A stretch of DNA of 64,000 nt, from the NCBI GenBank assembly GCA_963767315.1, contig CAVYDK010000014.1, forward strand, positions 45,894 through 109,893. The letters are read 5' to 3'. The translations under genes were made by a program, and so were the position numbers. The notes beneath the pieces are model-generated. The model worked only from the letters and a program-made list of their open reading frames with translations. It was not told the DNA's origin and did not search any database. The DNA is from an uncultured Acidobacteriaceae bacterium. GTDB lineage: Bacteria; Acidobacteriota; Terriglobia; Terriglobales; Acidobacteriaceae. Below, piece by piece: positions 22,048 to 33,884 of the stretch. How positions within the stretch are numbered: position 1 is the stretch's first letter; every line of letters begins with the position of its first letter.

Positions 22048-22854
22048 CTAGCTTTGATGAAATGGTCGAGACTGGCTAACTGTCAGCTTATATGGGGTTG
22101 CCCATGTCTTATAGCTGCTGAAGAGGAGCTGAACGCCAAGGACGAGCAGCCAGACCCAGAGGACAAAACGCAACTGACGGCGCGGAACGCGTGTGCTGAA
22201 GATGGTTCCGGCGATGGCCCCGGCGGCGCCGCCAACAATCAGGTGCGTCAGCAACTCCGGGTTGGAGGCGTGCGAGAACCAATGTGCGCCGCTGCCAATG
22301 AGCGAGACGATAAAGCCAAAGGCAATATCTGTACCGACTACTTGCGCGGGTTCCAAAGCAGTGAGGCTGAGCAGCGCCGCCGAGCCCAGAGCGCCGGCCC
22401 CTGCGGAGGAAAAGCCGACCTCGGCTCCTACCGGAAACATCAGCCACGCCAACCAGGGACTGCGGTCCCGCGGATTCGCGTTCTGCTTCAGCGGACGAAA
22501 CGTAACAAAAATCTGCCAACTTGCCGTCGTCACCAGAATCGTACCCAGAATTGCATTCGTCAGGTTCTGCGAACCGGCGTTCACCAGATGCTTCAGGAAG
22601 AGCGACCCAACAATCACGCCGGGCACACCACCCAGAAGCATGAACCCAAGCGTCCGCCAAGCCACGTTGCGGCGAAGGATTTGCGCCGGCACCAGAATCA
22701 GTTTGACCGCTGTGGCGAACATCAAGCCGATGCCGACGGCAACCGGCGCCGGCACTCCGAGAAACAAAACCAGCACCGGCACGGTGACGGTTCCAGCGCC
22801 AACGCCGGTGAACGCAATAAACAGAGCGATGATGAATCCAATAAGATATTGCAT
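22048..22854 (-). CDS. sulfite exporter TauE/SafE family
   Basis: Multi-TM; GVGAG, GFSSAGAGALG, VVGTDIAF. Confidence 0.88.
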   Translation of the reverse strand: MQYLIGFIIALFIAFTGVGAGTVTVPVLVLFLGVPAPVAVGIGLMFATAVKLILVPAQILRRNVAWRTLGFMLLGGVPGVIVGSLFLKHLVNAGSQNLTNAILGTILVTTASWQIFVTFRPLKQNANPRDRSPWLAWLMFPVGAEVGFSSAGAGALGSAALLSLTALEPAQVVGTDIAFGFIVSLIGSGAHWFSHASNPELLTHLIVGGAAGAIAGTIFSTRVPRRQLRFVLWVWLLVLGVQLLFSSYKTWATPYKLTVSQSRPFHQS

Positions 22855-22884
22855 TGTCGATTCCTCAATTCCGTCGCGCCCGTA

Positions 22885-23583
22885 TTATTTCGGCGGCGCT
22901 GCTTCGATGTGAATGCCGCATTCAACCTTGCGGCCGGCCCAACGGCCGGAGCGCGGATCGTTCGGGTCCAGTGGAAGCGTCGTACAAGGCTCGCATCCGA
23001 TGGAGGAGTAGCCGCGTTCATAGAGCGGCAGCAGTGGGATCGACAGTTCTTCGCAGGCGGACCAAACATCGCGCGTCGTCCACGCCGCCAGAGGCGCGAG
23101 CTTAAGCACCTGCCTGCCGCCGGGAAGCGTGAACAGCGCCGACTCTTCGAGGGCCGCCCGGCTCTTTGCCTGCTCACGGCGCAAGCCGGTAATCCACACG
23201 CGATAGCCGGCAACGGCTTTGAAGAGCGGTTCAACCTTGCGCAGCCTGCAGCACTGGTCCGGTGCGGATCGATACAGCAGGCCGTGCTCGGCCTCCTGCT
23301 CGGCGACCGTCTTTTCGGGTAGAAGGTTGATCAAATTGAGTCGCCATTCGCCGGCAATGCGGTCCCGATAGGCATAGGTTTCGGGAAAGTGATAGCCGGT
23401 GTCGAGAAAGAGGATGGGTATCTTTGCATCCAACTCGATCGCCAGCTTCGCAAGCAGTACATCTTCGGCCTGAAAGCTGCATGTGAGGCATACATCCTGA
23501 TTGCCGGTGATTTCGCGCGCCAGCGCGGCGCGCAGCTTGCCCAGTCCGGTCTCCATCCGCCCATGGACTCCCACTGTGCTCAT
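22885..23583 (-). CDS. cysH: APS reductase (CysH, Fe-S type)
   Basis: FLDTGYHFPET, CCRLRKVEPL, SIGCEPCT, ECGIH; start overlaps the upstream stop (TGATG). Confidence 0.92.
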   Translation of the reverse strand: MSTVGVHGRMETGLGKLRAALAREITGNQDVCLTCSFQAEDVLLAKLAIELDAKIPILFLDTGYHFPETYAYRDRIAGEWRLNLINLLPEKTVAEQEAEHGLLYRSAPDQCCRLRKVEPLFKAVAGYRVWITGLRREQAKSRAALEESALFTLPGGRQVLKLAPLAAWTTRDVWSACEELSIPLLPLYERGYSSIGCEPCTTLPLDPNDPRSGRWAGRKVECGIHIEAAPPK

Positions 23584-23910
23584 CACAAACCTGCCTTTTC
23601 CCATGGAATGAAGAACCCTGCGCCGTGCAACAGTTGATGGACGGCAGAGACCGCATGGTTTGGATCGTTCGCGTCGAGAGTAAGCTGCCGGTCTTCTGCG
23701 CGCACCAGGAGCGTTCCGCCTTCGTTCGCGTTCACGACCAGCGCAAGCAGTCCGGATTGGACCTGCAGCCGGATGACGATCTCCAGCAGGCTCGGATGAA
23801 ATAGGAAGGCTTCATCGTCCGCTTCGATGCGGCTGGAAACGACTCCCACGGAAAAGAGCGAACGCTCGATGGAATCGATCAGTTCGACAGGGCCGCTCAG
23901 TTCGAGGACC
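23583..23910 (-). pseudogene. out-of-frame C-terminal (vestigial APS-kinase-like) domain of CysN
   Basis: After GEREARWGHRGA a one-base shift gives VLELSGPVELIDSIERSLFSVGVVSSR...WEKAGL*, ending exactly at the cysH start. Confidence 0.65.
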
Positions 23911-25305
23911 CGCGCCGCGATGGCCCCAGCGCGCTTCCCGTTCGCCGATGGTCACAGGGCCCCACGCGTCCGCGTGGAGACTGCCGGCCGTCGCGCCTCC
24001 GGACGCCGCCGTAATCATGCCCGCTGCAACGGTGCCGTTGGTTTCGGCGTCGACCAGGATGAATGCGCCAGTGCAGCGATTCACGCCGTAGAGGTCCACT
24101 GCGATGGGACGCAGCAGATGCAGCGTGACCACGCCAATGCCGTTCATCTCCAGCGTGTCGGCGGGTTCATGCGTCAGGCTGGCGATATTGGTGCGATGTT
24201 CGATTGCGGAGACGAATGCGGGCACGGTCTGGCTGGTGTGCTTCAGCAGATAGCGGCGATCGCGCTGCAGCGGACGCGCATCCATCCAGACGAGCGCGGC
24301 CTGAAGGCGCTTGGCGACGGTTGCCTGCGTGTGCGTGGAGACGATCAGATCGCCGCGGCCGATGTCGAGCTCGCGATCCAATACCAGCGTGACCGATTGC
24401 GGCGCAACCGCCTCGGCAAGCTCACCATCGAAGGTGACGATGCGCGCAACCTCTGCGTTTTTGCCGGAGGGAAGCACGGTGATCCGATCGCCGGGGCGAA
24501 CCATTCCCGATGCAACCTGACCGGCAAATCCGCGAAAGGCGTGATTGGGACGAAGGACCCGCTGCACGGGAAAGCGGAAAGGCGCAGTGCGCGTATCAAG
24601 CGACGATGGCAGCGACTCAAGAAGCTCAAGCAGTGTTGGACCGTTGTACCATTTCATCGCTTTCGAGCTGTGAACGATGTTGTCGCCGGCGAGAGCGCTG
24701 ACCGGAACGAAACTGACATCGACCGGGTTGCCCGTATCGGCTGCGATGCGATCGAGGACGGAAGTGAAATCCAGTTCGATGGCGCGGAAGGCCGCCTCGT
24801 CGTAGCCAATCAAATCCATCTTGTTGACCGCGACAATCACGTGGCGCACGCGCAGCAACGATGCAATGTAAGCGTGACGGCGCGATTGAATCAGAACGCC
24901 CTTACCGGCGTCGATCAGCACCACCGCCGCATCGGCCGTTGACGCGCCAGTCGCCATGTTGCGCGTGTACTGCTCATGGCCGGGCGTGTCGGCGATGATG
25001 AACTTGCGGCGTGGCGTGGAGAAGTAGCGATAGGCGACATCGATGGTGATGCCCTGCTCGCGCTCCGCGCGCAGCCCGTCGGTGAGCAATGCGAAATCAA
25101 TCTGCCCCGGGGCCGTCGTTCCCTTGCCTTCGATGGAGCGTACCTGATCGTCGTAGACCGACTGCGTGTCGTAGAGCAGTCGGCCGATGAGTGTGGACTT
25201 GCCGTCGTCCACGCTTCCCGCCGTCGAAAAGCGCAGCAAATCCTTTTCGCGCTCCTCGGCAAGATAATCTGCGATCGAGAATGGGAGTGCCGCGAGTGTG
25301 GCCAT
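23812..25305 (-). CDS. cysN: sulfate adenylyltransferase subunit 1 (GTPase)
   Basis: GSVDDGKST, EREQGITIDVAY, DTPGHEQYTRNM, VNKMD. Confidence 0.95.
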   Translation of the reverse strand: MATLAALPFSIADYLAEEREKDLLRFSTAGSVDDGKSTLIGRLLYDTQSVYDDQVRSIEGKGTTAPGQIDFALLTDGLRAEREQGITIDVAYRYFSTPRRKFIIADTPGHEQYTRNMATGASTADAAVVLIDAGKGVLIQSRRHAYIASLLRVRHVIVAVNKMDLIGYDEAAFRAIELDFTSVLDRIAADTGNPVDVSFVPVSALAGDNIVHSSKAMKWYNGPTLLELLESLPSSLDTRTAPFRFPVQRVLRPNHAFRGFAGQVASGMVRPGDRITVLPSGKNAEVARIVTFDGELAEAVAPQSVTLVLDRELDIGRGDLIVSTHTQATVAKRLQAALVWMDARPLQRDRRYLLKHTSQTVPAFVSAIEHRTNIASLTHEPADTLEMNGIGVVTLHLLRPIAVDLYGVNRCTGAFILVDAETNGTVAAGMITAASGGATAGSLHADAWGPVTIGEREARWGHRGAGPRTERPCRTDRFHRAFALFRGSRFQPHRSGR

Positions 25306-26262
25306 TTAGAAGTAGCCCTCCCGCTTCTTGATCTCCATCGAACCTTCCTGGTCGTGATCGATGACACGGTTGGCGCGCTCTGACGAGCGGAAGGAGAGCA
25401 GCTCCGCAATGATGGCGGGAATCGTATCCGCGTCAGACCGAATCGCTCCGGTGCACGGACTGCAACCGAGCGAACGCAGCCGAGACTTGACCATTTGCGG
25501 CTGTTCGCCGGGTAGCGCGACAAAACTCTGCTCCATGGGAAGCAGCGCATCGCCGCGCACATACATGGGGCGCTCCCTGGCAAAGTAGAGATCGACGACC
25601 GGAATCTTTTCCTCATGGATGTATTGCCAGACATCCATCTCCGTCCAGTTGGAGAGCGGAAAGACGCGAATGCTTTCGCCGGGATGGACGCGCGCGTTGT
25701 ACAGGTTCCACAGCTCGGGGCGCTGGTTCTTCGGGTCCCATTGCCCGGCGCTGTCGCGGAAGGAGTAGATGCGTTCCTTGGCGCGGGATTTTTCTTCATC
25801 GCGCCGCGCGCCGCCGAAGGCCGCATCGAAGTTGTAGTGACGCAGGGCGTCGAGCAGGGCCTGCGTCTTCAGCAGTCCGCAGCAGCGCTTGGTGTCCAGC
25901 GCGATGGGATTCGTGCCCGCGGCGATGGCGGCCTCATTGCGCCAGACCAGCAGCTCGACGCCCGCGGAGCGGGCGGTTTCATCGCGGAAGGCGAGCATCT
26001 CGGCGAATTTGAAGCCGGTGTCGACGTGGAGCAAGGGAAAGGGAATCGGCGCGGGGTAGAAGGCCTTCTGCGCCAGCCGCAACATCACGGAGGAATCCTT
26101 GCCGATGGAGTAGAGCATGACGGGACGCTCAAACTCCGAGGCCACTTCGCGCAGGATGTAAATGCTCTCCGCTTCCAGCAGGCGCAGATGGCCCAACCGC
26201 CGCGCAGCGGATGCGCCGGCTGGCAGCGATGCGATCGATGAATCGCTTACGGAGATTGCCAT
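25306..26262 (-). CDS. cysD: sulfate adenylyltransferase subunit 2
   Basis: [43 protein letters not shown]. Confidence 0.96.
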
Positions 26263-26306
26263 GCACGACCTCGTTCAGTGTGGGGATTCCGCTGAAGGCC
26301 AGTGCA
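26262..26306 (-). promoter_or_regulatory. hairpin sequestering the cysD SD and start
   Basis: Minus strand TGCACTGGCCTTCAG-loop-CTGAACGAGGTCGTGCA(TG): ~13-14 bp with bulges, covering GAGG; paired by eye. Confidence 0.6.
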
Positions 26307-26374
26307 ATGGATTCGCACCCGGTCGATCAGCGAGGGGTGCGTCTTCTGATGAATCGCGATTGGGGAATCAGAGA

Positions 26375-26443
26375 CTACTTCATACACCCGTCGAAGATGT
26401 TCGACAGGCGACAACAAGAGCGGCGTTGGGACGCGCGAACCAT
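26375..26443 (-). CDS. Cys-rich leader peptide upstream of cysD (MVRASQRRSCCRLSNIFDGCMK)
   Basis: 22 codons, 3 Cys all TGT, AGGA 8 nt before ATG, ends 112 nt before cysD. Confidence 0.7.
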   Translation of the reverse strand: MVRASQRRSCCRLSNIFDGCMK

Positions 26444-26502
26444 GGGTACGTTCCTGGTGGCATTTCGCCGGGACAATCGGAGCTGGAAGTTCTTATCCAG
26501 AA

Positions 26503-26516
26503 TTGATGCGCATCAA
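26503..26516. promoter_or_regulatory. perfect 14-bp palindrome, candidate operator
   Basis: TTGATGCGCATCAA between tRNA-Cys and the cysD leader. Confidence 0.45.
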
Positions 26517-26538
26517 GCCGGGACCGATTCAATAAAGT

Positions 26539-26614
26539 TGGAGCGCCGGGCGGGAATTGAACCCGCGAATACAGGTTTTGCAGACCTGCGCGTTAGCCGC
26601 TTCGCCACCGGCGC
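26539..26614 (-). tRNA. tRNA-Cys(GCA)
   Basis: GCGCCGG acceptor, CAGGT-CTGCAAA-ACCTG anticodon arm, GTTCAAT T-loop, U73-CCA. Confidence 0.96.
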
Positions 26615-26736
26615 AATTGGAAACTTTTGGTGGATGCCCAAGTCGCATCGCTGGGTCCTGGGGTTGTTTTGCAATCTGCCTCCGGGATTATGGAAGGACG
26701 TAGCGGAGGTCGGCGTAGCCGGCGAAGTCGTGCGCT

Positions 26737-26829
26737 GTCCTCACGGCTCAGCAGCAGATACGGCAGCACAAACGACCACTCCTCGTGCGACACATCGCTC
26801 GGATAGCGAACCCGTCCCTCGTTTCCCAT
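26737..26829 (-). pseudogene. IS5-family transposase N-terminal remnant
   Basis: RYPSDVSHEEWSFVLPYLLLSRED. Confidence 0.7.
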
Positions 26830-26897
26830 CCTTCCATGCTGCGCAGAATACAAGCTCACGCAAAGATTCTACCCAGGTACAGACTTCATAACAGGCT

Positions 26898-29800
26898 CTA
26901 GAAGAGAAGTTTGAGGCCGAGCTGGATCTGGCGTGTGGTGGCGGCGGAGGTGATGACTCCGGCGGTGGGGCTGAGGGCAACGGCGCTGGTCTGGTTGGCG
27001 GCGGTGCCCTGGGTGGGCCCGGCGGAGAAGACTGTCTCGGCCGGAGTGAGCAGGTTGGTGTGGTTGAGGACGTTGAAGAACTCGGCGCGGAACTGCGCGC
27101 GGACTCGCTCGGTGAGCTGCGTGGTCTTGGCCAGCGACAGGTCGAGGTCGTTGTAGCCGGGGCCGGTGAGCGTGTCGCGGCGGAGGTTGCCAACCGTACC
27201 GTAGGCGGGCGCGGAGAAGGCGGCGGGATTGAAGTACTGGGCTACTTTTTGTGCGGTAGTACCCTGGGTGTAGAGCGATCCGGTGAATGCGGGGTTGACG
27301 TTGGGGCGGACGGGGTTTCGCGAGTCGCCGGAGCCGGTGGGGTTATAGCCAAGCTGCGGGCTGAAGGGGAAGCCCGACTCGAGGGTTGCGATGGCGGAGA
27401 GCGTCCAGCCGGAGACGGCGGCGTTGGCGAAAGGCCTGGCGTTGGCCAGCAAGAGATGGTTCTTGCCGAAGGGCAGGTCGTAGCTGGCGTTGATGGAGGC
27501 AAGGTTGCGGATGTCTGTGGCGGCAGGACCCCAGTCGAGCGCGGGATTGTTGGGGTAGGAGACGAAGGCTGGCGTGTTGGCGGAGACGCTGGTGTTCCAT
27601 GCGGAGCCGTCGTCGAGATTACGCGCGTAGGTGTAGTTGGCGCGGAAGGTGAGACCATTGGCCAGCGAGCGGTGGAGATCGACTTCGAGTGCATTGTAGG
27701 AACTCGACCCCTGCGAGACCCAACTTGTGGTGTTGGCGAGCGCGGGGTTGGGCTTGGTGGTCGTCGGGTAGTAGATGATGCCGCCGGGCTGGACGACACT
27801 GGCGGGCTCGTTGAGATCCTCGGAGAGGATATGGTGGGTGCCGTGCGAGCCGACGTAGCCGATGGTGAGCGAAGTCTTCGGTGCGATCTGCTGCTCGACG
27901 CGCAAGGTCCACGCGAAGACAGATGGCGTTGCGATGTCGGGCTGCACTGTGGAGGGTGAGACAGAGGAAGCGCCAGAGGTCGGATTTGCAACACTGCCTG
28001 AAGTCGAGTAGATGGTGTTGAAGGGGGCCGACTGGTCGAGGCGGTAGTCGAGCGTGTCGAGCAGAGCGTGGTGCAGGCCGAAGCTGGCGCGCAGGACTGT
28101 TTTGCCGGTGCTGAACGGATCGTAGGAGAGGCCGAGGCGCGGCTCGGGGAGGAACTTGGCTCGGTTGGTGGTGAGGGAGGAGGAACCGGTGGTGGGGGTT
28201 GAGTTGATGATGCCGCTAGTGAATCCGTAGACCGGCGCGCGACCGTGCGAAGCGTTCCATCCGTCGGTGGATTCTGTGCGCAGGCCGGCGCGGAGTTCGA
28301 GGTTGGGGAAAGTTTTGATGGTGTCTTCAACGTAACCATCGACGAAGGTGCTGCGCCAGCCCAGTTCGGTGGTGGAGGGGACGTAGGTGAAGGTCTTGAT
28401 GGTTCCCTGCAGGAAGGTGGTGAGCGAGGCGAAGCTGGCCTGGCCGTCCTGGTCCTGCGCCAGGTTGTCGTTGGACTCGAGCAGTTGCAGCCAGCCACCG
28501 GCCTCGATCTGCTGGCGTCCGCGCGAGTAGTAGATGTGATCATCAAAAGTAAATAGGTTGCGCGTGGTGCTGTTGTTGGAGCCAACGTTGACGCCCGCCG
28601 TAGTGATGGTGGACGCGCCGTTGGAGGCCGTCGAGCCGGCGATGACGACCGCGCCGGTGGGCTTGCCAACGAGAAAGGTCGGGGTTACGGCTTGAATGTT
28701 GGCGGGAACCGAGCCGAGGAAGAAGAAGCTGGCGCGAGAGAAGCCTGCGCGGGCGGTGTTGAGCAGGCGCGGCGAGAAGACGTGCTGCTCCTGCACGCTC
28801 GCCACCTGCTCGCGCAGATTCTCCTCAACGAGTGAGTAGGGGTCTTGCGTGGGTGTGTGGGCGATGGAGTCGTCGATGGTGTAGACGGCGAAGAGCAGAT
28901 CGTTCGGCGTGAGGTTGGCGTCGAAGCGCGTGGTGCCGAAGTCCTCGCGGATGTGCTGAGTGGGCGAGGAGAATGCCTCGGCGATGCCGGTGGGAAGGCC
29001 GGTGGGAGAGAGGAGTTCAGGGCCGTTCTGCGTTGGCCACAGGTTCAGCAGGCCAGCGACTCCGGCGCCGAGCGTGACGGGTGAGAGTGCGCCGGTGGTC
29101 GCGTTGGGCACCAGGCCGTTGCGTGCGTTCGAGTCGGGCACGAAGGTGACGTTGGAGATGCCGAGGTTCTGGCGATAGCCCTCGTAATTCGCGAAGAGGA
29201 ATAGCTTGTCTGTCTTGATCGGGCCGCCCAGCGATGCTCCGAAGTTGTTGCGCTGGAACTCCGGGATGCGTGCGGGGTCAAAATAATTGCGCGCGTCGAA
29301 AAAGGAGTTGCGCAGGAACTCGTAGATCGATCCATGAACGCTGTTGGTTCCGGAGGCGGTGATGATGGAGACCTGCGCGCCCTGCCGCTTGCCGTAGGCG
29401 GCGGAGTACGTGTCTGTGATGACGTTGAACTCGCGCACGGCCTCGACGCCGAGGAGTTGGCCGCTGGTGCCGCCGGGGGTGACGTTGATGAGCGATGCTC
29501 CGGTGTACTCGACGCCGTTGAGCAGGTAGAGATTGTCCTGCGGGCGGCGGCCACTGACGGCGAACATATTTCCCACCGATGAGTTCGACGTGCCGATGGA
29601 GCCCGAGCGCTGGGCGGTGTAGTTGACGGTGGCGGGGTTCAGGGTGATGAGCTGGTCGTAGCTGCGTCCGTTGAGGGGGAGTTCCTTGATCTGGTGCGCG
29701 TCGATCAGGCCGGCAGTCTGCTGCGTGGAGAGGTTGACGACAGGGGACTCGTCGTTGACAGTGACGGTCTGCACGACTCCGGTGAGCGGGAGCGTGAGGT

Positions 29801-30110
29801 TGACGCTCTGCGACTGGCCGACCGAGAGCGCGATTCCGGTGCGGCGCTGCTGGCTGAAACCGGTGGCGTCGGCGGTGATGGTGTAGCTGCCGACCGGGAT
29901 GGACGGCGCGGCGTAGCGGCCATCAGGGCCGGTCTGGAGATGACGCTCGTTGCCCGTCTCATCGTTGTGGACGAGGACGGCGGCGTTGGCGATGGCTGCG
30001 CCGGTGGAGTCGGTAATGGTGCCGGAGATGGTGCCGCCGACGACCTGCGCGGGAGCGAGTTGCACAGCCAGGCCGAAGACCAGAATCATTCCAATCAATT
30101 TGCGTACCAT
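26898..30110 (-). CDS. TonB-dependent receptor inside the sulfate-assimilation cluster
   Basis: GTITDSTGAAI, LPLNGRSY, VHGSIYEFLRN, RQIQLGLKLLF; SD AGGAG before ATG at 30110. Confidence 0.92.
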   Translation of the reverse strand: MVRKLIGMILVFGLAVQLAPAQVVGGTISGTITDSTGAAIANAAVLVHNDETGNERHLQTGPDGRYAAPSIPVGSYTITADATGFSQQRRTGIALSVGQSQSVNLTLPLTGVVQTVTVNDESPVVNLSTQQTAGLIDAHQIKELPLNGRSYDQLITLNPATVNYTAQRSGSIGTSNSSVGNMFAVSGRRPQDNLYLLNGVEYTGASLINVTPGGTSGQLLGVEAVREFNVITDTYSAAYGKRQGAQVSIITASGTNSVHGSIYEFLRNSFFDARNYFDPARIPEFQRNNFGASLGGPIKTDKLFLFANYEGYRQNLGISNVTFVPDSNARNGLVPNATTGALSPVTLGAGVAGLLNLWPTQNGPELLSPTGLPTGIAEAFSSPTQHIREDFGTTRFDANLTPNDLLFAVYTIDDSIAHTPTQDPYSLVEENLREQVASVQEQHVFSPRLLNTARAGFSRASFFFLGSVPANIQAVTPTFLVGKPTGAVVIAGSTASNGASTITTAGVNVGSNNSTTRNLFTFDDHIYYSRGRQQIEAGGWLQLLESNDNLAQDQDGQASFASLTTFLQGTIKTFTYVPSTTELGWRSTFVDGYVEDTIKTFPNLELRAGLRTESTDGWNASHGRAPVYGFTSGIINSTPTTGSSSLTTNRAKFLPEPRLGLSYDPFSTGKTVLRASFGLHHALLDTLDYRLDQSAPFNTIYSTSGSVANPTSGASSVSPSTVQPDIATPSVFAWTLRVEQQIAPKTSLTIGYVGSHGTHHILSEDLNEPASVVQPGGIIYYPTTTKPNPALANTTSWVSQGSSSYNALEVDLHRSLANGLTFRANYTYARNLDDGSAWNTSVSANTPAFVSYPNNPALDWGPAATDIRNLASINASYDLPFGKNHLLLANARPFANAAVSGWTLSAIATLESGFPFSPQLGYNPTGSGDSRNPVRPNVNPAFTGSLYTQGTTAQKVAQYFNPAAFSAPAYGTVGNLRRDTLTGPGYNDLDLSLAKTTQLTERVRAQFRAEFFNVLNHTNLLTPAETVFSAGPTQGTAANQTSAVALSPTAGVITSAATTRQIQLGLKLLF

Positions 30111-30215
30111 GGCAGTCTCCTGTATGCAGTCCATCCGCGTTCGCCGTCCATGGGGATGGCGCCAGACCGGATGATGCATTCCGTTTGATTTTTGTTTTGT
30201 TTACCGCGTGAGAAT

Positions 30216-30335
30216 TCAACCGCGAAGGGCTGGCGCGCGAGATCGACAGGCACAACAATGCGCTCTTCCCGGCCGGCTCAGCGCGCGGGCGAAGCTTGCA
30301 AACAAGGGTGCGGAGATCGGGGTATACACGGGCAT
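30216..30335 (-). CDS. Cys-rich leader peptide upstream of the TonB receptor (...RPGRAHCCACRSRAPALRG)
   Basis: CAT TGT TGT GCC TGT CGA; stop 105 nt before the receptor ATG; start uncertain (ATG 30335, or in-frame GTG/TTG downstream). Confidence 0.6.
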   Translation of the reverse strand: MPVYTPISAPLFASFARALSRPGRAHCCACRSRAPALRG

Positions 30336-30441
30336 CCTGGACTCGGTGGACCTACGAAGTGCGTTTGTATGGGGAAAGACAAAATCGCGGACAGGCCAGC
30401 GGGCGCTAGCGCAGACAGCAACAACACGCGAATTTGATAAA

Positions 30442-30466
30442 GAAGTTTTGCATCTGAAAAAACTTC
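30442..30466. promoter_or_regulatory. inverted repeat in the divergent promoter region
   Basis: GAAGTTTT-N9-AAAACTTC. Confidence 0.4.
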
Positions 30467-30544
30467 CTGACTGGCACAGTCTAGCGAAGATTGGAATTCC
30501 TGTCCAGCGACCCGCCGATTTTTTTTTTGCGCGCCGCGGGCAAC

Positions 30545-30573
30545 TTGACTTTCGCCCGGGCTGCACCTACTGT
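30545..30573 (+). promoter_or_regulatory. sigma70-type promoter predicting a leaderless transcript
   Basis: TTGACT-17 bp-TACTGT, then 6 nt to the ATG at 30580. Confidence 0.75.
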
Positions 30574-30579
30574 CTACTT

Positions 30580-30633
30580 ATGGAAGGTCAGCTCTGTTGT
30601 CGCCGCTGTTCACAGCCTCGCGCGGACAGATGA
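30580..30633 (+). CDS. Cys-rich leader peptide upstream of sir (MEGQLCCRRCSQPRADR)
   Basis: 17 codons, 3 Cys all TGT, ATG at the predicted +1, ends 94 nt before sir. Confidence 0.78.
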   Translation: MEGQLCCRRCSQPRADR

Positions 30634-30673
30634 CCTGGGTCTAAAGTTCAGATCGAAATCCCGGTTTTCAGAT

Positions 30674-30711
30674 ACCCGCGAAGCAGCCGTTGCTGTCGCG
30701 GGTTTTCTGTT
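30674..30711 (+). terminator. attenuator-like intrinsic terminator between the leader and sir
   Basis: ACCCGCGA-AG-CAGC-CGTT-GCTG-TCGCGGGT followed by TTTCTGTT. Confidence 0.65.
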
Positions 30712-30727
30712 CCAGGCGAGGGATAAT

Positions 30728-32425
30728 ATGACGGAAGCAATCCAGAAGAAAGAGACCAAGGCGCAACAGGCGGAACGCTTGAAGCGCGAAAAGAACCCCT
30801 GGGAAGCCTTCGATGAGGTGCGCGCCTTTGCGCGCCAGGGCCGCGCCAGCGTGTTGCCCGACTGGGCTTCCAGTTATTTCAAATGGTGGGGCGTCTACAC
30901 CCAGGGCGACGGCGTGGGAGCTACCGGCGGCAAAGGCGGCGAGGGCCTGGCCTCTGAATTCTTCATGATGCGCATCGGCATTCCCAACGGCATCGTCACC
31001 GCCGGCCAGCTTCGCGTCATCGGCGGATTGGCGCGCAAATACGCCCGCAACCTTGCCGACATCACCGTGCGCCAGAATATTCAGCTTCACTGGCTTACCA
31101 TCGAGTCGCTCCCCGAGGTTGTGGATGCGCTGGACGCCATCGGGCTTTCGCCCAAGGGGGCCTGCGGCGATGTGGTGCGCAATGTGACCGGCTGCCCGCT
31201 GGCCGGAGTCGCCGCCGATGAGTTGATCGACGCCTCCCCGCTCGCCCTGCAGATCGCGCGCCTGCTGACGGCGAATCCGGAGTTCTACAACCTGCCGCGC
31301 AAATTCAAAATCTCCGTCACCGGCTGCCCCTCCTGGTGCACACACCCGGAGATCAACGACATTGCCCTCACTGCAACCGAAAACAACGGCCAGATCGGTT
31401 ACTCGCTGCGCGTCGGCGGCGGCCTCTCCAAGGAACCGCATCTTGCCGTTCGTCTCAATGCCTTCATTCTCCCCGATCAGGCGGTCCGCGTTGCGCGCGC
31501 CATAGCTGAAATCTTTCGCGATCAGCAGGGCCTACGGGAAAACCGCAGCCAGGCCCGCATGAAGTATCTCTTTCTGAAAGAAGGCTGGACCGCCGAGAGT
31601 TTTCTTGCAGAACTGCAGTCGCGACTCGACTTCACGCTGTTGCCCGGCGTGCCCGAGCAGGTTCCCGAGGACATCTTCCGCGACCATGCGGGCATTCATC
31701 CGCAGCGCCAGCCCGGCTTGAGCTACGTTGGTGCATCGGTCCTGCGCGGCCGGATGAGCGGCGAGCAGTTGGAAGCCGCCGCCGAACTTGCCGAGCGCTT
31801 CGGAAGCGGAGCGTTGCGCGCAACTGTCTCGCAAAACCTGCTCTTCATCGACATTCCCAACCGCAAGACAGCCGAATTAGCGCGGGAACTTGGGCAGATC
31901 GGCCTTCATGTCGATGGTTCGTCTTTTTGGCGCGGCGCGGTCGCCTGCACCGGCACTGAGTTTTGCAAGCTGGCCATCACGGAAACCAAGGGCTTTACAC
32001 GCTGGATCGTGGATGAGCTCGAAGAGCGGCTGCCCGCGTTCGACCAGCAGCTCCGGCTGCACGTCACCGGCTGCCCCAATAGCTGCGGACAGCACTGGAT
32101 CGCCGACATCGGCATCGAGGGCAAAAAAATCAAGCACGAGGGCAAGCTCACCGACGCTTATTACTTCTGCCTCGGCGGAGCGGTGGGCCGGCACGCTTCC
32201 ATCGCGCGCCCGGTAGGCTATCGCTGCCCCGCGCCGCTGGTGCCTGAAGCGATCGAGCGTCTGCTCCGCCACTACCTCGCCAGCCGCCTGCCTGAAGAGA
32301 ACCTGCGCACCTGGTTCTTGCGCCACACGAACGATGAGCTGCGCGCCGATTTGGCGGGTGAGGTTTTGCCGCCGGTCGAGCGCGACCTGCCCGCGGGCCG
32401 CGTGCCCCACGGCATCGCCGATTGA
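30728..32425 (+). CDS. sir: nitrite/sulfite reductase (siroheme, ferredoxin-type), likely sulfite reductase
   Basis: ACGDVVRNV, NLPRKFKI, ACTGTEFCKLA...VTGCPNSCGQH siroheme/Fe-S motif; cys context. Confidence 0.9.
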   Translation: MTEAIQKKETKAQQAERLKREKNPWEAFDEVRAFARQGRASVLPDWASSYFKWWGVYTQGDGVGATGGKGGEGLASEFFMMRIGIPNGIVTAGQLRVIGGLARKYARNLADITVRQNIQLHWLTIESLPEVVDALDAIGLSPKGACGDVVRNVTGCPLAGVAADELIDASPLALQIARLLTANPEFYNLPRKFKISVTGCPSWCTHPEINDIALTATENNGQIGYSLRVGGGLSKEPHLAVRLNAFILPDQAVRVARAIAEIFRDQQGLRENRSQARMKYLFLKEGWTAESFLAELQSRLDFTLLPGVPEQVPEDIFRDHAGIHPQRQPGLSYVGASVLRGRMSGEQLEAAAELAERFGSGALRATVSQNLLFIDIPNRKTAELARELGQIGLHVDGSSFWRGAVACTGTEFCKLAITETKGFTRWIVDELEERLPAFDQQLRLHVTGCPNSCGQHWIADIGIEGKKIKHEGKLTDAYYFCLGGAVGRHASIARPVGYRCPAPLVPEAIERLLRHYLASRLPEENLRTWFLRHTNDELRADLAGEVLPPVERDLPAGRVPHGIAD

Positions 32426-32435
32426 GGATCAAGCC

Positions 32436-33884
32436 ATGAGCCTGTTGCCGGTCTTTCTCAAACTCGATGGTCGCCCCGGCCTGCTGGTGGGCGCGGGAGC
32501 TGTCGCCCTGGAAAAAATCGGCAGCCTGCTCAAGACAGGGCTGCGGCTCCGCGTTGTCGCTCCCAATGCAGTGCCTGAAGTACGGCAACTCGCTATCGAA
32601 GGCCGGCTCGAATGGATCGAGCGCCCTTTCGAATTCTCCGACCTCGATGGCAACTTCCTGGTCATCGCCGCCACCGATTCTGCCGAGGTCAATGCAGCCG
32701 TCTACCAGCGCGCGCGCGCGCGCGGCATTCTGGCCAACAGCGTGGACGACCCTCCCCACTGCGATTTCTATTTCGGCTCCGTGGTCAGTCGCGGCGAATT
32801 GCAAATTGCCATCTCGACGGCCGGAGAGAGTCCTGCCGTCGCGCAGCGTCTGCGCCGCGAGATCGACGAGCAGTTGCCGGAAGACCTCGGCCGCTGGCTT
32901 GAAGATATGGGTAGGTTGCGCCGCGAAGTGTTGGCAAAGCAACCGCGCGGCGAGTCGCGCAGGCGGATGCTGCATCAATTGGCGCAGCGTCCGGTGTGCG
33001 AAGCGGCGTCCTGCCCCTCGCGCCAATTGGCCCTCGCGCCGTTAAAAAACGAGAACGCCAATTCAGCAGGAACGGTCTATCTGGTGGGGGCCGGTCCGGG
33101 AGATCCAGATTTGCTCACTCTCAAGGCGCTGCGCCTCATTCAGTCAGCCGACCTCATCCTCCACGACGACCTTGTTCCGCAGGCAATTCTTCACCTCGCG
33201 CCGTCCGACGCCGAAATCATCAATGTGGGCAAGCGCTGCGGCGTGAAGAGCATCTCGCAGGAGCAGATCAACGCGCTGATGGTGGCGAGCGCCCGCGCTC
33301 GTCGCACTGTGCTGCGCCTCAAGAGCGGCGATCCGCTGATCTTCAGTCGTGCCAGCGAGGAGATCGCCGCGCTCACGGAATCCGGCGTGCCCTTTGAGAT
33401 CGTCCCCGGCCTCTCTGCCGCTTTTGCCGCAGCCGCGGCCATCGGCTGCCCGCTTTCCAGCCGCAACAGCGCATCGAATGTGATCTTCTCCACCGGCCAT
33501 CACGCCCAGTCTCACAATTGCGCGCCGCTGCCGCAACTGGAAGACGCAACCCGCGTGGTTTATATGCCCGGCCGCGATCTGAGTTTGCTGGCGGAACAAT
33601 GGCTCGACGAAGGCCTGCCCCCCGAATTCCCCTGCGCCGTCGTCTCGCAAGCCTCTCAGCCCGGCCAGCAGCTTCGCTGCACTACGCTCGCCGCACTCGG
33701 CAACGCCGAGCCGTTTGACGCGCCGAGTCTGCTGATCGCCGGCTGGGCGCTTCGAGAGTCCTCTGCCGCATTCCAGCACCTCGCCAAAACTACATCCGAG
33801 CGAAATGGAGAGCTTTCTCGGTCGGAAACTCCTGCACCGAAAACGTCTTTTGTCTCTGCTTCTGGTCCGGCACCTTCCCGGTAG
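32436..33884 (+). CDS. cysG: siroheme synthase (dehydrogenase/ferrochelatase + uroporphyrinogen-III methylase)
   Basis: LLPVFLKL, NSVDDPPHCDFYF, VYLVGAGPGDPDLLT, RLKSGDPLIF; last ~35 aa derive from IS-end/integrase DNA. Confidence 0.93.
   Translation: MSLLPVFLKLDGRPGLLVGAGAVALEKIGSLLKTGLRLRVVAPNAVPEVRQLAIEGRLEWIERPFEFSDLDGNFLVIAATDSAEVNAAVYQRARARGILANSVDDPPHCDFYFGSVVSRGELQIAISTAGESPAVAQRLRREIDEQLPEDLGRWLEDMGRLRREVLAKQPRGESRRRMLHQLAQRPVCEAASCPSRQLALAPLKNENANSAGTVYLVGAGPGDPDLLTLKALRLIQSADLILHDDLVPQAILHLAPSDAEIINVGKRCGVKSISQEQINALMVASARARRTVLRLKSGDPLIFSRASEEIAALTESGVPFEIVPGLSAAFAAAAAIGCPLSSRNSASNVIFSTGHHAQSHNCAPLPQLEDATRVVYMPGRDLSLLAEQWLDEGLPPEFPCAVVSQASQPGQQLRCTTLAALGNAEPFDAPSLLIAGWALRESSAAFQHLAKTTSERNGELSRSETPAPKTSFVSASGPAPSR
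33776..33800. mobile_element. isolated IS481-like right-end remnant
   Basis: CCTCGCCAAAACTACATCCGAG matches CCTCGCCAAAATTCAATCCGGG (272-294 region) at 18/22. Confidence 0.5.

Follow-up and report, generated by a model that had tools for sequence, protein, structure and literature searches.

How an acidobacterium matches sulfate assimilation to its supply of cysteine is the question raised by one locus in the 64,000-nucleotide stretch of DNA analyzed here (the window; C14:45894-109893 of the source genome), which comes from an uncultured member of the Acidobacteriaceae. Within 4.5 kb of this genome, four short open reading frames (ORFs) rich in cysteine codons are placed as leaders on three units: cysDNH-tauE, a gene for a TonB-dependent-type outer-membrane protein (OMP), and sir-cysG. 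From the sequence and its comparison with relatives, we consider it probable that all four ORFs encode cysteine-sensing leader peptides, each read out in a manner specific to its unit. The ORFs themselves, their conservation, their codon bias, the terminators, and the conserved complementarity of the RNA helices are directly supported.

In the mechanism that we propose, a ribosome with plentiful Cys-tRNA(Cys) would pass the Cys codons and leave the leader, and the downstream unit would be off. A ribosome facing scarce Cys-tRNA(Cys) would stall on the Cys codons, the RNA would refold or stay protected, and the unit would be on. The Cys codons, almost all UGU, would be read by wobble through a single GCA anticodon, and cysDNH-tauE, the OMP gene, and sir-cysG would together constitute one cysteine regulon that is read by the ribosome. 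Translation of the ORFs, ribosome stalling, and the response to cysteine are the steps that we infer.

Cysteine-rich leader ORFs and their conservation

An initial annotation of the window had described Cys-rich ORFs before cysD, the OMP gene, and sir, each with three Cys codons that include a CC pair, and we recovered all three. They are MVRASQRRSCCRLSNIFDGCMK before cysD (26375-26443, minus strand; CC pair at 26411-26416), an ORF ending in ...AHCCACRSRAPALRG before the OMP gene (stop at 30216, minus strand), and MEGQLCCRRCSQPRADR before sir (30580-30633, plus strand). Also borne out are its statements that all nine of their Cys codons are TGT, three in each ORF, that the Cys codons of sir are TGC (10 of 10), and that the leader stops lie 112 (cysD), 105 (OMP), and 94 (sir) nucleotides (nt) before the downstream starts. 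The ORF on the OMP side, which we call leader B or the second OMP leader, has an in-frame ATG at 30335 that extends it to 39 codons (MPVYTPISAPLFASFARALSRPGRAHCCACRSRAPALRG, 30216-30335). The count of three fell short, however, as a further ORF on this side had been missed, making four in all. This first OMP leader, leader A (MQNFFIKFACCCCLR, 30406-30453, minus strand), carries the Cys codons TGT TGT TGC TGT and would be 23 amino acids long if translated from a GTG at 30477. The four ORFs comprise 15 to 39 codons, and TGT makes up 12 of their 13 Cys codons. The distance to the OMP gene is 295 nt for leader A; the other three leaders lie 94 to 112 nt upstream of their genes. Shine-Dalgarno sequences of the AGGAA type precede leader A and the cysD leader, in the latter case 9 nt before the ATG. 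Leader A is further preceded by a promoter-like site, TGGACA-17 nt-TAGACT (30478-30506, minus strand), the one site found where 0.2 were expected. The TGTTGT hexamer itself occurs 29 times in the window against 19.7 expected, a count reached by 5 of 100 shuffles. Because this enrichment is not significant, the case rests on comparison with relatives.

The source genome (3.04 Mb, 22 contigs, 63% G+C) is Granulicella-like, its closest named relatives being Granulicella, Edaphobacter, Tunturiibacter, and other Acidobacteriaceae. We drew orthologs of sir, cysD, and the OMP gene from 40 related genomes belonging to the same genus and to a second family of the same order. Almost every upstream region of these orthologs contains a short ORF, from ATG to stop, in which two to six Cys codons follow one another. 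Cys-rich short ORFs occupy the sense strand in 56 of 69 orthologous upstream regions and the antisense strand in 5 of 69, while shuffled regions (200 shuffles) yield a mean of 1.7 and a maximum of 6. The leaders consist of 19% Cys and are otherwise highly variable as peptides, so far as different operons and genomes are compared; the Cys codons are their common part.

Leaders head the same three units in relatives, and their Cys codons are held in one open frame, as the initial annotation's reading of them as leader peptides had implied. They are found upstream of sir in 26 relatives and number 18 upstream of cysD, with a further 31 homologous cysD leaders from metagenomes and about 27 beside OMP loci. 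Among 77 usable OMP loci from 80 named public genomes (60-94% identity), 68 have one or more Cys leaders, 23 of them two or three, and the genera represented are Granulicella, Edaphobacter, Tunturiibacter, Bryocella, Terriglobus, and Terracidiphilus. The OMP gene has cysDN as its direct neighbor in 30 of the 80 loci, and a cysD leader is present in 26 of the 28 cysD-adjacent OMP loci examined. Cultured strains share this layout, among them Tunturiibacter lichenicola MP8S11 (L096; OMP gene, leader, cysDN), Granulicella rosea DSM 18704 (L118), and Bryocella elongata DSM 22489 (L142). Of the metagenome loci, 37 of 72 have a cysD leader, almost all of these 37 with a CysD identity of at least 84%. 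Nearly all peat and soil metagenome cysD genes at or above this identity carry a homologous leader (MVRASQRRSCC[CR]LSNIFDGC...), and distant ones (77% identity or less) mostly have none.

Two features of leader composition accompany the Cys runs. Arg is the second most common leader residue (12.7%) and very often directly follows the run (CCR, CCCR), and in many second OMP leaders R, RP, or A stands between a terminal Cys run and the stop. Elongation or termination is known to be slowed by Arg and Pro-stop contexts, so the Arg and Pro residues after the Cys run may add to the stall.

Codon choice at the cysteine codons

We compared Cys codon usage in 67 curated leaders with that in the adjacent cysD and OMP genes. 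The leaders use 233 TGT and 101 TGC codons (70% TGT), and the adjacent genes use 8 TGT and 111 TGC (7% TGT; Fisher p = 9e-36); the TGT share of Cys codons genome-wide is about 13%. The preference that had been noticed in the window is thus general in orthologous leaders and specific to Cys codons. It also depends on position, with TGT accounting for 89 of 92 codons that open a Cys run, 40 of 48 in the middle of a run, 55 of 92 at its end, and 49 of 102 isolated Cys codons. This bias is not a general context effect, because ordinary Cys-Cys pairs in the genes of this genome begin with TGT in only 47 of 230 instances. Nor does it stem from low G+C content of the leaders, because their other NNY codon families are 32% T-ending (p = 6e-19).

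The genome contains three tRNA-Cys genes of two sequence types, all with the anticodon GCA. One lies within the locus (26539-26614, minus strand), ahead of the cysD leader by 95 nt and in the same orientation; the others are located elsewhere in the genome (G000 C14:31552-31626 and C17:158607-158682). UGU must consequently be read by G:U wobble, and the bias cannot act through rare isoacceptors but would need wobble kinetics. According to Curran and Yarus, as cited in PMC4046918, the Cys tRNA reads NNC codons faster than NNU codons, and attenuators are known to have a biased choice of regulatory codons (PMC1183508). On these grounds it is reasonable to suppose that the use of UGU sharpens the cysteine sensor. 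Slippage at TGT repeats, codon-pair effects, or avoidance of RNA structure could also account for the TGT preference. The order tRNA-Cys, leader, cysD recurs in 2 of about 38 metagenome relatives (L156:873-948 and L163:828-903), and this extra tRNA-Cys directly upstream of the cysD leader, confined to one subclade, may add to the tuning.

Predicted read-outs of the three units

The sir leader is, in folding models, a classical four-segment transcription attenuator. An intrinsic terminator (ACCCGCGAAGCAGCCGTTGCTGTCGCGGGT followed by TTTCTGTT; 30674-30711, plus strand) forms a hairpin of -18.5 kcal/mol and ends 17 nt before the sir ATG. A simple terminator scan missed it because its loop and stem rules were stricter, and a custom search found it. 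Terminators stand behind 21 of 26 sir leaders. Constrained folding places the antiterminator partner in the 3' part of the leader ORF (30615-30625, plus strand), and in the free leader RNA the segment containing the Cys codons pairs with the 3' end of the ORF. We modeled the co-transcriptional fold, that is, the RNA made before the 3' arm of the terminator, with the ribosome position constrained and with energy models alone. A ribosome placed on the CC pair leaves 9 of the 14 nt of the terminator 5' arm paired with ORF positions 35-45, and one placed at the leader stop codon leaves 2 nt of this arm paired with the ORF. The same dependence of pairing on ribosome position is predicted by the energy models in 29 of 38 terminator-bearing leaders, the sir leader of this genome included. 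When Cys-tRNA(Cys) is scarce, a ribosome stalled at the Cys codons would thus leave the 3' part of the ORF to pair with the 5' arm of the terminator; when cysteine is replete, the Cys-codon segment would pair with the 3' part of the ORF and leave the terminator to form. A promoter-like site read from the sequence, TTGACT-17 nt-TACTGT (30545-30573, plus strand), ends 6 nt before the leader ATG, and the spacing from TTGAC to ATG recurs in relatives. This site suggests that the sir transcript is leaderless or nearly so.

No terminator follows the cysD leader here or in its closest relatives, and terminators are found behind 6 to 8 of 18 more distant cysD leaders. Because they lack an intrinsic terminator, we do not class the cysD leader and OMP leader B of this genome as classical attenuators. 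An alignment of 31 homologous cysD leaders points instead to a series of conserved helices, P1 to P4, in the cysD untranslated region (UTR), whose predicted fold is -40.4 kcal/mol (z = -2.07). Hairpin P1 (26385-26410, minus strand) follows the CC pair immediately on the 3' side; its base, CCUGUC:GACGGG, does not vary among the 31 sequences, and the helix is 94% paired. P2 and P3 come after it. Hairpin P4 (26259-26310, minus strand), also 94% paired in the 31, would bury the cysD Shine-Dalgarno GAGG (26269-26272) and the start codon (26260-26262); it pairs GGCCUU with the Shine-Dalgarno region GAGGUC, and in this genome the AUG is covered as well. Pairing reaches 89% in the alternative helix ON1 and 95% in the alternative helix ON2. 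The exact complement of the P1 3' arm (ACGGGUGU) is ACACCCGU in the 5' arm of P3, and GCCGG in the 3' arm of P3 is complementary to CCGGC in the 5' arm of P4, the latter pairing being ON2. Overall, pairing amounts to 88% in the "off" helices and 87% in the "on" helices, compared with 27-47% for slid controls, and RNAalifold picks P1 and ON2 by itself.

These pairings suggest a translational relay, possibly backed by the termination factor Rho. A stalled ribosome would melt P1, whose 3' arm would then invade P3 through ACACCCGU; the freed GCCGG would pair with CCGGC, P4 would open, and the cysD Shine-Dalgarno and AUG would be exposed for translation. We regard this relay as a well-fitting structural hypothesis. 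A promoter-like element, ATTGTGC...TTTGCTACTAT (an extended -10), is conserved in the cysD family (in the 90 nt upstream of the ATG in L153-L191). It ends about 10 nt before the leader ATG and would leave a 5' UTR of 2-4 nt.

The structure of the cysD family bears on two other explanations. The initial annotation had offered, as an alternative to attenuation, that the shared TGTTGT(C)GCC is a DNA or RNA motif for a regulator, and in its general form this would make the sequence a site for a regulatory protein or small RNA and the ORFs incidental. Both TGTTGT.GC.TGTC and GACGGGT are indeed invariant in the 31 cysD leaders, synonymous sites included, and a strong TGT preference could in principle reflect selection on the nucleic acid. 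The invariance at synonymous sites of TGTTGT.GC.TGTC is, however, accounted for by hairpin P1, because these bases form its 5' arm. Across operons and genomes, conservation is limited to the in-frame Cys codons of an ATG-to-stop ORF, the lengths of the runs and the sequences around them vary freely, and the feature is specific to strand and frame. An Rfam 15 scan of positions 24000-33000 with E up to 5 likewise brought only the tRNA to threshold and gave no match in the leader regions. A regulator site as such is not supported, since 30% of the Cys codons are TGC instead of TGT and the flanking sequences vary from one operon to another, and we consider it highly improbable.

The ORFs might alternatively encode functional Cys-rich peptides, whether metal-active, redox-active, or precursors of modified peptides, with co-expression as their only tie to the sulfur genes. 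The cysD family does keep a recognizable SCC[CR]LSNIFDGC, but this conservation reaches synonymous sites and maps to the RNA hairpin, and the leaders of other operons and genomes share the Cys codons alone. Many leaders moreover precede terminators, which would prevent co-expression, and their codons are rare in this genome. A Pfam search of the leader peptides returned no match even at E = 10. Functional peptides are thus scarcely credible as an explanation of these ORFs.

Apart from these explanations, leader B (within 30216-30257, minus strand) and the cysD leader (within 26400-26416, minus strand) share the stretch TTGTTGT(C)GCCTGTCGA at 16 of 17 nt. The frames differ past the CC pair, so that TGTC provides the third Cys codon in leader B and the 5' arm of hairpin P1 in the cysD leader. 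The shared stretch could be a duplication remnant or a chance match.

The third unit encodes an OMP of 1070 residues (26898-30110, minus strand) with a CarboxypepD_reg domain (PF13620, 1.5e-20) and an OMP_b-brl_4 barrel (PF25183, 1.4e-169). Its match to the Plug domain (PF07715) is weak (E = 4.7e-4; 21.1 bits, just below the cut-off of 23.9), and an NCBIfam search with the protein gave no match. Tandem leaders precede OMP orthologs in at least 23 other genomes, and the relatives that have them show a good terminator after the first leader and none after the second. We found no terminator after leader B in this genome either. A set of nine homologous second OMP leaders has the Cys run next to the stop codon, with a pyrimidine-rich spacer after it, and the consensus structure of the set is empty, with 0 predicted pairs. 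We therefore propose that the OMP gene is governed by two leaders in series, the second most likely Rho-dependent because it has neither a terminator nor a conserved structure and its spacer is C-rich and G-poor. That the OMP leaders are cysteine sensors at all is, on the evidence of sequence, likely but less secure than the explanation of the locus as a whole.

Gene order in a close relative points to what the OMP might work with. In L079, a YeiH-family gene (1470-2708; PF03601/TIGR00698, "putative sulfate exporter") lies ahead of the OMP gene in the same orientation, with the Cys leader beginning at its stop codon or overlapping it. In L057, L058, L060, and L062, an upstream ORF has the same C-terminal tail as this YeiH-family gene, a likeness seen in the tail alone. 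The arrangement suggests that the YeiH-family protein and the OMP form an inner- and outer-membrane transport pair under cysteine control.

A TonB-dependent-type OMP behind a Cys-containing ORF also recalls CruR (DUF2946), a copper-responsive upstream ORF (uORF) ahead of the TonB-dependent transporter gene bfrG in Bordetella pertussis, which acts through Rho (PMC9426467). The OMP leaders could by this precedent be metal-responsive (e.g., copper-responsive) arrest uORFs of a TonB-dependent metal importer, and leader B does contain CCAC and ...SRAPA.... Nevertheless, DUF2946 (PF11162) gives no match even at E = 10, no RAPP or RGPP motif was seen by eye in the leaders of the 77 ortholog loci, and the length of these leaders is 11-50 residues. 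In UGU bias and general style they match the cysD and sir leaders, and the OMP has cysDN beside it in 30 of 80 loci, or else the YeiH-family putative sulfate transporter. We give a CruR-type metal response very little credence. The resemblance that does hold is that a Cys-containing uORF precedes a gene of the TonB-dependent transporter type under posttranscriptional control, which for our locus is a proposal; the absence of DUF2946 and of the RAPP motif and the linkage to sulfate assimilation rather than to copper genes set the two systems apart.

A different question is how the terminator-less leaders, those of cysD here and the second OMP leaders, are read out. Rho, rather than a relay that sequesters the Shine-Dalgarno sequence, could load on the C-rich untranslated spacer after the leader stop, and a stalled ribosome would mask or remodel the loading site; cysteine sensing would be kept, and only the read-out step would change. 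The 70 nt past the stop of terminator-less leaders are 37% C and 20% G, the nine second OMP leaders combine 0 predicted pairs with a pyrimidine-rich spacer and a Cys run at the stop, and a rho gene is present in the genome. The same idea was put forward by Seliverstov et al. for terminator-less actinobacterial cys leaders (PMC1262725). The cysD family, however, has conserved helices that end in a hairpin over the Shine-Dalgarno and AUG, with alternative pairings that are equally conserved. In addition, the Cys codons of the cysD leader and leader B in this genome do not adjoin the stop, and the skew of C over G also occurs, more weakly, in terminator-bearing leaders. A read-out by Rho in place of the relay across these leaders is in our view rather unlikely, and the two could act together.

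Several observations weigh against the reading of all four ORFs as cysteine-sensing leaders with the read-outs just described. The minimum-energy fold of the full-length sir leader RNA keeps the terminator hairpin even with the ribosome stalled, and the antiterminator appears in the truncated, co-transcriptional fold only. Covariation in the cysD helices is weak, because most alignment columns are invariant, and the helices were derived from the same 31 sequences in which their pairing was scored. The region upstream of the cysD leader in this genome (26444-26480, minus strand) keeps the -35 but not the good -10 of its relatives, having AGGAA instead, perhaps because the leader is transcribed from the tRNA-Cys or OMP promoter. 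After leader A, a T-run with a weak hairpin folds no better than shuffles (z = -0.83), and for this reason we make no firm claim of a terminator there. The Shine-Dalgarno context of leader B is poor, and 9-12 codons separate its Cys codons from the stop, whereas in the second leaders of relatives the Cys run abuts it. The chance-level hairpin of leader A and the distance of the Cys codons from the stop in leader B are why the OMP part is held with lower confidence. The rho gene (C18:474842-476081), located near a contig end, matches its family model in two frames with one internal TAG, reflecting either an assembly error or a disrupted gene, which matters for the Rho-dependent reading. Finally, cysK (C10:71586-72485, minus strand) has no Cys-rich leader; the one ORF in its 5' region, of 42 codons, has two Cys that are not adjacent. 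The regulon thus leaves part of the pathway uncovered.

Regulon extent, known systems, and meaning

Besides the OMP, the genes behind the leaders are sulfate assimilation genes by their Pfam and NCBIfam matches. On the minus strand, the cysDNH-tauE unit (22048-26262) comprises cysD (25306-26262), cysN (23812-25305), cysH/APS reductase (22885-23604), and tauE/safE (22048-22854). Divergent from it and from the OMP gene, the sir-cysG unit on the plus strand (30728-33884) comprises sir, encoding a NirA/SirA-type sulfite reductase (30728-32425), and cysG, encoding siroheme synthase (32334-33884). The closest OMP orthologs (94% identity) do not share the order OMP, tRNA-Cys, cysD leader, a hint that the locus was rearranged locally. 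Between the end of the OMP gene and the tRNA-Cys gene, a spacer of 283 nt (26615-26897, minus strand) has an 88-codon ORF (26593-26859), which we had entertained as an insertion-sequence remnant and dropped, as Pfam gave no match.

Genome-wide scans for further leaders yielded background only, with no further credible leader. This background consisted of TGC-rich ORFs upstream of rplA, pnp, murB, and other genes and of ORFs within coding regions or repeats; a match to TGTTGTCGCCGGTGT on contig 2 was set aside, as it lies about 16 kb from the nearest downstream gene in a crude gene model. The system seems, in this genome, not to extend beyond the 9-kb locus described here.

The closest known counterpart is the "Cys ribulon" of Mycobacterium smegmatis, in which polycysteine leaderless short ORFs (Ms5788A and those at five other loci) are experimentally shown to be cysteine-responsive attenuators; the mechanism demonstrated for Ms5788A is translational, through sequestration of the ribosome-binding site, and that at the other loci was left open (Canestrari et al. 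2020, bioRxiv 10.1101/834739). In both systems, several operons for cysteine and sulfur begin with a short ORF that has two or more Cys codons in a row, and stalling on the Cys codons, shown there and proposed here, is the sensor. At Ms5788A the stalled ribosome prevents a duplex that hides the ribosome-binding site, which matches the relay predicted for cysD. The transcripts here may likewise be leaderless, with the -10 ending 6 nt (sir) or about 10 nt (cysD family) before the ATG, although the cysD leader and leader A of this genome have AGGAA-type Shine-Dalgarno sequences instead. In contrast to the ribulon, the leaders described here belong to a different phylum without sequence homology, and their targets include a TonB-dependent-type OMP with tandem leaders. 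Most of the leaders compared (those of sir, the first OMP leaders, and many of cysD) carry an intrinsic terminator and a predicted antiterminator. The bias of UGU over UGC, extreme here, is unmentioned in 10.1101/834739.

Leader ORFs with runs of Cys codons were predicted earlier by comparative genomics for actinobacterial cys and cbs genes (Seliverstov et al. 2005, PMC1262725). As in our set, some of those leaders have no terminator, and Rho was proposed as the read-out; unlike ours, that set covers Actinobacteria only and includes neither terminator-bearing Cys attenuators nor a transporter target (PMC1262725). In its leader ORF, antiterminator, and terminator, the sir leader resembles the enterobacterial attenuators (trpL, hisL, leuL, thrL, pheL, ilv), and the rare CUA regulatory codons of the leu leader (discussed in PMC1183508) are akin to the biased codons found here. 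Unlike the enterobacterial attenuators, however, the leaders here would sense cysteine, and their bias does not act via rare isoacceptors. We know of no classical terminator-based cysteine attenuator in textbook sets. In the tna operon of Escherichia coli, Rho-dependent attenuation is relieved by a ribosome stalled at the end of the leader tnaC. The second OMP leaders of relatives resemble this arrangement in having a Cys run at the stop, an unstructured C-rich spacer, and no terminator, but the stall would arise from a shortage of charged tRNA rather than from a ligand acting on the nascent peptide, and the role of Rho is a prediction.

Our literature searches found no description of such leaders in Acidobacteria, no terminator-type Cys attenuator of sulfite reductase, and no account of a TonB-dependent transporter under the control of a Cys leader or of the UGU bias; on TonB-dependent uptake under sulfur starvation, they found nothing relevant. 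The new elements are a multiunit regulon at one locus, tandem leaders on a conserved OMP target, terminator-based read-outs side by side with terminator-less ones, and a strong preference for UGU that depends on position. The tandem leaders, the target OMP, and the preference for UGU seem not to have been described before.

A broader reading, which we advance tentatively and with more doubt than assurance, is that these leaders define a cysteine regulon across the family Acidobacteriaceae that is read by the ribosome and has no dedicated transcription factor. It would couple sulfate activation and sulfite reduction to TonB-dependent uptake of a sulfur source, with the OMP checked twice and with sensitivity tuned by UGU. 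Such tuning by UGU at the start of a Cys run would be codon-kinetic and would be undescribed for attenuators that depend on a single isoacceptor.

Acidobacteria are among the most abundant soil bacteria, and their gene regulation is almost uncharted. If our explanation is correct, acidobacterial sulfur assimilation would be controlled by the ribosome through leader peptides and not by a CysB- or CymR-like regulator, and cysteine-sensing attenuation, in both terminator-based and terminator-less forms, would have evolved independently of that in mycobacteria. The position-dependent UGU preference would offer a clean natural test of whether wobble tunes the threshold of an attenuator, because cysteine has one anticodon. 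Unannotated leaders would explain the long, seemingly empty 5' regions of cysD, sir, and OMP genes in hundreds of genomes. The conserved TonB-dependent-type OMP, often accompanied by a YeiH-family transporter, would be a cysteine-starvation gene and a concrete lead to an uptake route for a sulfur compound across the outer membrane.

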